From Escherichia coli (GTDB lineage: Bacteria > Pseudomonadota > Gammaproteobacteria > Enterobacterales > Enterobacteriaceae): a DNA stretch of 566 nucleotides. Of the stretch, positions 241 through 503 are shown piece by piece (within the stretch, counting starts at the first letter, position 1; each line of letters opens with the position of its first letter). The stretch lies in assembly GCF_003334405.1 (NCBI RefSeq), contig NZ_QOWM01000063.1; one strand, 5' to 3'. The position numbers and the translations under genes were made by a program. Below the pieces are notes generated by a model. That model was not told the origin of the DNA and ran no database searches. It saw nothing but the letters and a program-made list of their open reading frames with translations.

Positions 241-316
241 TGGTGGAGCTATGCGGGATCGAACCGCAGACCTCCTGCGTGCAAAGCAGGCGCTCTCCCA
301 GCTGAGCTATAGCCCC
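241..316 (-). tRNA. tRNA-Ala (anticodon UGC), 76 nt including encoded 3' CCA
   Basis: Reverse complement of 241..316 reads GGGGCTATAGCTCAGCTGGGAGAGCGCCTGCTTTGCACGCAGGAGGTCTGCGGTTCGATCCCGCATAGCTCCACCA. It has a 7-bp acceptor stem, a D-loop motif AGCTCAGCTGGGAGAGC, anticodon stem CCTGC/GCAGG with loop TTTGCAC (anticodon UGC; plus-strand gca at 281..283), a T-arm GGTTCGATCC and an encoded CCA end. It matches the E. coli spacer tRNA-Ala(UGC) as recalled. Which paralog (alaT/alaU/alaV) cannot be told from this window. Confidence 0.95.
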
Positions 317-358
317 ATAACATGTAGTTAAAACCTCTTCAAATTTGCCGTGCAAATT

Positions 359-435
<77 letters not shown>

Positions 436-503
436 GTAGAGGTTTTACTGCTCATTTTCATCAGACAATCTGTGTGAGCACTGCAAAGTACGCTTCTTTA
501 AGG

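Follow-up and report, generated by a model that had tools for sequence, protein, structure and literature searches.

The 566-nt stretch of Escherichia coli DNA analysed here (contig NZ_QOWM01000063.1; 'the window' below refers to its full length) is part of a ribosomal RNA (rrn) operon of the Ile/Ala type, which is encoded on the minus strand, the strand shown being the template view. In the transcript, the 3' end of 16S rRNA precedes tRNA-Ile(GAU), tRNA-Ala(UGC), the spacer boxA with the 23S leader and the 5' end of 23S rRNA. The subject of this analysis is the short spacer between the two tRNAs, including a small RNA hairpin which starts inside the CCA end of tRNA-Ile and a second helix which encloses both tRNA-Ile and the hairpin.

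The first-pass annotation drew attention to a duplicated 8-mer, CAAATTTG, at positions 340-347 and 353-360 with CCGTG (348-352) in between, and this arrangement is confirmed on the sequence. The coordinates obtained with ARAGORN bear out that the repeat overlaps the tRNA-Ile CCA (359-361) by 2 nt and that the spacer is 42 nt long. Because CAAATTTG is its own reverse complement, the duplicated palindrome is at the same time a perfect inverted repeat. A hairpin does form in the minus-strand transcript, but its size had been misjudged: instead of 8 bp and a 5-nt loop, it consists of 9 bp closed by a 3-nt loop (arms 340-348 and 352-360) and begins with the final two nucleotides, C and A, of the tRNA-Ile CCA. 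Three of the nine pairs are G-C, and the stem is followed by AAGAGG. The isolated hairpin has a folding energy of -6.9 kcal/mol (z = -4.4), and none of 200 dinucleotide shuffles folds equally well. By chance, perfect hairpins of at least 9 bp with a loop of 3-8 nt arise at a rate of 1.1% when the window is dinucleotide-shuffled (22 of 2000) and of 0.11% when the 45-nt segment comprising CCA and the spacer is shuffled (22 of 20000). The stem is also favoured next to the flanking tRNA structures: with both cloverleaves enforced, all nine pairs are retained, with probabilities of 0.985-1.0. Rfam covariance models gave no match inside the spacer (317-358 of the window) at E<=1. The family HPnc0260 produced a sub-threshold antisense match (30.5 bits versus a gathering score of 59, E = 0.34), which lies on the plus strand over the tRNA-Ile gene and touches only the last two positions of the hairpin.

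Besides the hairpin, the fold contains a leader-trailer helix which is absent from the first-pass annotation. This helix, hereafter the bracket, consists of 10 bp formed by 447-438 with 329-338 and encloses tRNA-Ile together with the hairpin. The repeat finder reports the underlying inverted repeat as 13 nt long (329-341 with 435-447), and ten of these pairs are compatible with the tRNA and the hairpin; with both cloverleaves enforced, the bracket pairs have probabilities of 0.46-1.0. With the 5' arm of the bracket ending 2 nt before tRNA-Ile and its 3' arm beginning 1 nt past the hairpin, a compact three-way junction is predicted for pre-tRNA-Ile, in which the leader-trailer helix, 2 nt, the acceptor stem, 2 nt (A73 and C74), the hairpin and 1 nt follow each other. 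Apart from a 12-nt stretch adjoining tRNA-Ala, no sizeable portion of the spacer is left over by the two helices; this stretch is unpaired in one constrained fold and weakly paired in another constrained fold and in folds of the isolated spacer. The features are collected in Table 1.

Table 1. Coordinates of the genes and RNA elements in the window (position 1 is its first nucleotide)
Feature	Position	Strand	Details
16S 3' end	566-504	minus	
Bracket 5' arm, UAAAACCUCU	438..447	minus	Inverted repeat, fold; ends 2 nt before tRNA-Ile +1
tRNA-Ile(GAU) gene	359..435	minus	ARAGORN; Rfam tRNA 66.3 bits; CCA = 361-359
RNA hairpin	340..360	minus	5' arm 360-352 (CAAAUUUGC), loop 351-349 (ACG), 3' arm 348-340 (GCAAAUUUG)
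AAUU directly 3' of CCA	355..358	minus	Inside hairpin 5' arm; CCAAAUU context as at leuU and metU sites
tRNA-Ile/tRNA-Ala spacer	317..358	minus	42 nt; short form, fixed in E. coli
Bracket 3' arm, AGAGGUUUUA	329..338	minus	Inverted repeat, fold; starts 1 nt after hairpin
Stretch between bracket and tRNA-Ala, ACUACAUGUUAU	317..328	minus	12 nt
tRNA-Ala(UGC) gene	241..316	minus	ARAGORN; Rfam
Spacer boxA + 23S leader	65-173	minus	Rfam family StyR-44, 123 bits
23S 5' end	57-1	minus	First 57 nt

To place the hairpin in an evolutionary context, we scanned one genome per species with a pattern confined to the 3' half of tRNA-Ile, so that the spacer itself was not pre-selected. The scan yielded 120 loci, mostly from Enterobacterales and a few from Oceanospirillales, with 99 unique spacers. 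The Ile/Ala spacer varies in length from 16 to about 215 nt. In most genera, it measures 105-120 nt, and its first ~80-85 nt form an imperfect hairpin of ~25 bp which starts at or inside the CCA (for instance, L067:1801-1888(-), L036:222-309(+) and L003:459-553(-)). A helix of at least 5 stacked bp starting within the CCA or at +1 is present in 49 of the 99 unique spacers, compared to a mean of 15.5 and a maximum of 22 among shuffled sequences. When all 71 long spacers were analysed with RNAalifold, only an apical 5-bp stem was recovered, the signal being blurred because of outlier lineages (Photorhabdus, Xenorhabdus, Hafnia and endosymbionts) and register shifts; the set was then restricted to 53 canonical long forms. 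For these, RNAalifold applied to a plain MAFFT alignment, which had not been fitted to structure, predicts 25 pairs, 21 of them with compensatory double changes. Counting over the same alignment, 92.3% of the cells are paired, versus 72.1% in shuffled alignments and 27-45% when the partners are slid, and there are 279 double-change cells versus 81.6 in shuffled alignments, with none of the 500 shuffles coming up to the real alignment. The base helix (alignment columns 5-9 with 86-90), which is homologous to the E. coli stem, shows covariation at all five pairs and is 96.9% paired. The long form further includes a near-invariant internal loop, C-UGC-GUU opposite GCC-UUG (columns 19-25 and 72-77), in which one U.G pair never varies, and, at the apex, a covarying hairpin, GCAUAC-N4-GUAUGC, both of which are common to Enterobacterales and Oceanospirillales. 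The invariance of a U.G wobble implies that the constraint acts on the transcribed RNA strand rather than on the DNA. None of the spacers of ten long-form loci has a match in Rfam. The internal loop, which has no counterpart in E. coli, is a candidate recognition motif.

Aligned with each other, the short, intermediate and long forms make up a nested deletion series of 114, 110, 109, 106, 105, 75, 61, 51, 45, 42 and 36 nt: every member has retained its 5' flank (CCAAATTnnnnCTG) as well as its 3' flank (AATT...GAGnTT...AACTAC), and it is the interior that is lost step by step. The base helix is found in E. coli, with AAUUn/nAAUU at or next to the CCA and with CAAAUUUGC/GCAAAUUUG aligned to columns 5-9 and 86-90. 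Given that the conserved internal loop is absent from the 42-nt spacer and the apical hairpin is deleted, the E. coli element is a truncated derivative and not a full member of the long-form group; judging from the alignment, its hairpin is the base of the long hairpin, retained after internal deletion. The long form with the internal loop also is present in Oceanospirillales (L003 and L077), indicating that it is ancestral and the E. coli form derived. Among the short forms of Escherichia, Citrobacter and Enterobacter, the loop varies (ACG, ACC, GAU, GAA, CCU) and the stem is kept. As a case in point, the stem of one short form from Enterobacter asburiae (L012) differs by a double change, from U-A to C-G, and by a change from U-A to U-G. 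Of 5426 complete E. coli genomes, 5408 contain the short form (the median being three copies), and the long form was found in none of the E. coli genomes examined. The suggestion of the first-pass annotation that the hairpin is a conserved feature of enterobacterial Ile/Ala spacers therefore holds for the structure, as compensatory changes in related spacers keep a helix at this position across Enterobacterales, but not for the sequence, and the 42-nt form of E. coli belongs to a derived, truncated minority.

The bracket is likewise maintained across species. In an alignment-free test, the 13-nt leader paired with its own spacer tail at -9.74 kcal/mol compared to -5.42 for non-cognate leaders, and the cognate combination was better in 85 of 92 cases. 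A permutation test on 51 distinct leaders, each with one representative, gave a mean of -9.06 versus a permuted mean of -5.52, with the best permutation at -6.77 and none of 10000 as low as the observed value. The sequences of the two arms are unrelated between lineages: AAAACCUCU/AGAGGUUUU, ACAUCUCUG/CAGAGAUGG, AUUAUCG/CGAUAAU, GGUAUC/GAUACC and GUAUCAU/AUGAUAC. Even within a single genome of Enterobacter asburiae, the leader of each of two operons fits its own tail (AAUCUC/GAGAUU in one, AACCUCU/AGAGGUU in the other), and Xenorhabdus spacers devoid of the hairpin still have the bracket helix. The support for the bracket thus takes the form of a permutation test rather than a per-pair covariation table: in a MAFFT alignment of leader, artificial linker and tail, only the linker was predicted to fold, and the alignment-based count failed because the 3' arm shifts its position relative to tRNA-Ala between lineages.

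Overall, folding thermodynamics favour both the hairpin and the bracket in their context, and in each of them pairing has been preserved among species through compensatory changes. Very probably, the E. coli hairpin is a genuine RNA helix under selection and a homologue of the long hairpin's base. At the same time, although real and non-random, it is a fairly ordinary piece of precursor-RNA architecture. The arrangement of hairpin and bracket is claimed here for tRNA-Ile only. Extension of the design to tRNA-Glu spacers was considered and rejected, as the two E. coli variants share no common design: in one (L121:236-460), a 7-bp hairpin starting from the second C of the CCA and an 8-bp leader-trailer helix are predicted, whereas in the rrnB-like spacer (L242:188-520), the leader is predicted to form 5 bp with positions +2 to +6 of the trailer, with no hairpin, each variant being represented by a single sequence. 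A metagenome scan for further tRNA-Glu spacers returned 130 tRNA-Glu matches, none of which lies in an rrn spacer. The flanks of tRNA-Ala in E. coli, ACUACA and UGUAGU, can form 6 bp (323-328 with 231-236). As a general feature, however, a tRNA-Ala bracket was rejected, since pairing between leader and trailer across species is not better than that of non-cognate combinations (p = 0.12).

What such a junction might do is suggested by the sequence which it is predicted to sequester. RNase E has been mapped cutting at high-efficiency sites after leuU (CCAA|A|UUCC) and metU (CCAAAUUCU) (PMC2241853, Table 3), and the sequence at the end of tRNA-Ile, CCAAAUUUG, matches both in the A/U-rich sequence 1-3 nt after the CCA; the Enterobacterales consensus at this CCA-proximal site reads CCAAAUUC. 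RNase P is inhibited by terminator hairpins that stay attached to tRNA transcripts (PMC2241853), and RNase E cutting beside tRNAs needs an adjacent structured element, for which a simple stem-loop is enough (PMC9841416). In the folding model, the AAUU and the second C and A of the CCA are unpaired with a probability of at most 0.01 in the wild type, as opposed to 0.8-1.0 when the hairpin is disrupted or deleted, and in unconstrained folds lacking the hairpin the probability of the acceptor stem drops from 0.71 to 0.03-0.15.

On balance, we lean towards the view that the hairpin, a truncated base of the long form, is a self-contained spacer helix which, together with the bracket, tidies the precursor junction and buries the AAUU and the CCA end. 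By pairing with itself, the AU-rich trailer would be kept away from the folding tRNA, and the self-paired trailer would hold the two arms of the bracket together. The hairpin would also bury the CCA-proximal AAUU, a canonical context for RNase E, along with the second C and the A of the CCA, which are contacted by RNase P, and access of endonucleases to the 3' side of tRNA-Ile might be delayed, or ordered relative to other cleavages. Under this scheme, E. coli would possess a minimal version of the helix, having lost whatever extra role the long-form internal loop plays. That the hairpin actually gates processing in E. coli is possible, although we put this forward as a tentative, model-based proposal. 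Of the two effects envisaged in the first-pass annotation, the one on the 3' side of tRNA-Ile appears plausible, because the 5' arm carries the CCA-AAUU sequence of the leuU and metU sites for RNase E and is predicted to be buried, whereas an effect on 5' processing of tRNA-Ala is less likely, because the hairpin ends 23 nt upstream and the 12 nt beyond the bracket (317-328) are only weakly structured in the folding model. More speculatively, enterobacterial tRNA-Ile might be embedded in a dedicated module, with the junction hiding the RNase E site and the 3' CA, and thereby either ordering the action of RNase E, RNase P and exonucleases or serving as a folding checkpoint, and with the long-form loop (CUGCGUU/GCCUUG) being the recognition site of a factor dispensed with in Escherichia; we regard this elaborate version as doubtful.

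The main alternative to the favoured reading is that the hairpin is a neutral relic: a deletion in a long palindromic hairpin leaves its basal arms adjacent to each other, with no function of their own, and the remnant would persist through constraint on the 5' arm as an AAUU processing site and homogenisation of rrn operons by gene conversion. We consider it unlikely, while taking it more seriously than the other explanations, which are poorly supported. Several observations fit the relic and weigh against a function of the hairpin in E. coli. The spacer is very plastic in length, with graded deletions; some Xenorhabdus spacers, 16-20 nt long, lack the hairpin altogether; and ~65 nt of the element have been lost in E. 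coli at no evident cost. The three basal pairs (A-U, U-A and U-A) hardly vary in sequence across the 53 long forms, and at these positions a constraint on sequence, such as an RNase E site, is inseparable from one on pairing. For the base helix alone, the alignment-free cognate test is weak (-5.64 versus -4.98 kcal/mol; 63 of 95), because the arms are AU-rich and alike between species. Conservation within E. coli is uninformative on selection, because the whole spacer is homogenised. In addition, the sequences compared are phylogenetically non-independent, and the shuffle and permutation results hence overstate significance; the perturbation results come from a nearest-neighbour model of unmodified RNA; and we found no end-mapping or mutagenesis of the ileT-alaT spacer in the searchable literature. 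What speaks against a mere relic is that pairing rather than sequence is kept, with double changes at each of the five base-helix pairs in the long forms. Furthermore, the loop of the short form varies at every position, whereas the changes in its stem are only compensatory (L012), and independent truncations of differing extent (36, 42, 45, 49, 51, 61 and 75 nt) have in most cases retained a closed helix that begins at the CCA or adjacent to it.

Alternatively, the helix, either alone or stacked on the bracket, could be an RNase III site, cleavage of which would separate tRNA-Ile from tRNA-Ala, in the way that RNase III cuts the leader-trailer helices of 16S and 23S. The long form found elsewhere is a quasi-continuous duplex of ~25 pairs with small internal loops, resembling RNase III substrates in size and style, and the 9-bp hairpin and 10-bp bracket of E. 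coli, being 1 nt apart, could stack to ~19 bp. However, a 9-bp AU-rich stem falls far below the usual substrate length, the bracket amounts to only 10 bp against the two or so helical turns, or more, of an RNase III processing stalk, and most of the duplex has been lost in the E. coli lineage, which argues against an essential role there. The catalogued RNase III sites of E. coli rrn operons flank 16S, 23S and 5S rRNA and lie 3' of alaT and gltT, with none between ileT and alaT (PMC6212723; PMC5371410). RNase III cleavage is thus an improbable explanation.

Slightly less credible still is that the spacer gives rise to a stable small RNA acting in trans, akin to the sponges derived from the 3' external and internal transcribed spacers (3'ETS and ITS) of other tRNA operons. 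For other tRNA transcripts of E. coli, work cited in PMC9514646 documents functional fragments that RNase E frees from spacers, and the hairpin could stabilise such a fragment. Nevertheless, unlike a trans-acting seed, the sequence is unconserved and highly variable in length across genera, an AU stem of -6.9 kcal/mol protects little, and no fragment from this spacer is reported in the literature found.

A role at the DNA level, with the tandem palindromic CAAATTTG as the site of a dimeric DNA-binding protein or as a cruciform, is suggested by the symmetry of the pair and by the perfectly palindromic DNA sequence of each 8-mer. This possibility is very remote: the arms of relatives are not individually palindromic (for example, AAUUCGC/GCGGAUU) and still are mutually complementary, the homologous helices contain G.U pairs, including the invariant U.G, which are mismatches in DNA and on the opposite strand, and a scan of the window for promoter-like sites found none. 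Equally remote is a pause or terminator-like hairpin modulating RNA polymerase between the two tRNA genes, for although a hairpin in the nascent RNA of a very heavily transcribed operon might suggest it, the stem is not G+C-rich, AAGAGG takes the place of a U-tract, the terminator scan of the window returned 0 sites and rrn operons are transcribed under an antitermination complex (PMC10250234).

Among known systems, the closest counterpart by position is the V2 helix of cyanobacteria, which occupies the same place in a 16S, tRNA-Ile, helix, tRNA-Ala, boxB/boxA, 23S architecture and likewise is a single loop-interrupted stem of very variable length (7-90 bp for V2 (PMC8997340), 0 to ~25 pairs in the spacers compared here). 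V2 is a taxonomic marker without a defined function, and the resemblance, across phyla, is positional only: the enterobacterial helix begins at the CCA or within it and is contained in the tRNA-Ile leader-trailer helix, and we found neither property described for V2. The bracket, in turn, resembles the leader-trailer stalks of 16S, 23S and 5S rRNA (PMC10250234), in which flanking complementary arms maintained by covariation enclose the mature RNA. It differs from them in being ~10 bp rather than tens of bp long, in having no mapped RNase III site and in enclosing a tRNA and a hairpin instead of an rRNA, and tRNA-Ala has no equivalent. The tRNA-Ile bracket amounts to a miniature counterpart of the leader-trailer helices around 16S and 23S.

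The hairpin itself can be compared with the Rho-independent terminators located 3' of the CCA in leuU, the metT operon and leuX, where a stem-loop also follows CCA-AAUU; in these transcripts, RNase E cuts in the AAUU, and a retained hairpin inhibits RNase P (PMC2241853). In contrast to these terminators, the spacer hairpin is internal to a polycistronic transcript, AU-rich and devoid of a U-tract, and is not a terminator; moreover, the AAUU precedes the stem there and lies inside it here. The succession of tRNA-Ile, hairpin and tRNA-Ala also provides tandem structures of the sort required for activation of RNase E through its duplex-binding groove, cleavage 3' of a tRNA depending on a second tRNA next to it or on a simple stem-loop (PMC9841416), but in the model substrates the structures are separated by single-stranded RNA, the counterpart of which in the spacer is predicted to be paired.

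If the favoured reading is true, two halves of a much-studied spacer are not filler: the hairpin would be an arm of a defined junction, masking the very site where 3' maturation of tRNAs is normally initiated by RNase E, and this would offer a concrete, testable reason for a set processing order of rrn-embedded tRNAs. The comparison also indicates an uncatalogued conserved RNA hairpin in most other enteric bacteria, and it explains the large length polymorphism of the Ile/Ala spacer, used for ITS typing, as the stepwise truncation of one helix. Should the hairpin be a neutral relic instead, it would be a tidy example of deletions in a hairpin leaving a smaller hairpin. We found no description of the enterobacterial tRNA-Ile hairpin or of the bracket helix in the searchable literature, outside which lie the original spacer papers of the late 1970s, and an earlier description is possible. 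The added context raises the interest of the locus slightly over that of the hairpin alone: the ancestral helix has been cut short, the leader-trailer helix covaries, and the RNase E motif is predicted to be masked.

There is considerable variation in Ile/Ala spacers even within genomes and species. For instance, two operons of one Enterobacter asburiae genome (L011 and L012) have spacers of 49 and 36 nt, and those of Xenorhabdus yunnanensis (L061 and L062) differ even more, at 120 and 16 nt. Two records labelled Citrobacter amalonaticus (L059 and L073) carry spacers of 42 and 114 nt. A 42-nt spacer identical to that of E. coli is present in two metagenome-assembled genomes labelled as Bacillota (L050) and uncultured Desulfovibrio (L112), most likely reflecting E. 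coli contamination or misbinning. In Neptuniibacter and Marinobacterium (L077, L081, L093 and L094), a degenerate tRNA-Ile-like copy is located downstream of the genuine tRNA-Ile, with the anticodon arm replaced by a longer hairpin (CACCCCACTCTTTATAAAAGAAAGGGGGGTG or similar). The 3' end of the copy also is degenerate in L081 and L094. These copies were not called by ARAGORN, which in L093 called no tRNA at all.

The window as a whole is typical of the species: rrn spacers of the Ile/Ala type with 100% identity to it are found in many E. coli genomes, and all 5426 complete genomes contain a match. StyR-44, listed as an 'sRNA' family in Rfam, is a piece of the rrn spacer and not an independent gene, since the stretch which it matches consists of the spacer boxA and the 23S leader. 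The leader boxA region of rrn operons pairs with the 16S trailer. In the window, a 23-nt inverted repeat with 74% complementarity links positions 168-190, in the spacer boxA region upstream of 23S, with 479-501, in the sequence following 16S. Such pairing, if formed, would enclose both tRNAs, although the complementarity may only reflect the likeness of the spacer boxA to the leader boxA region.

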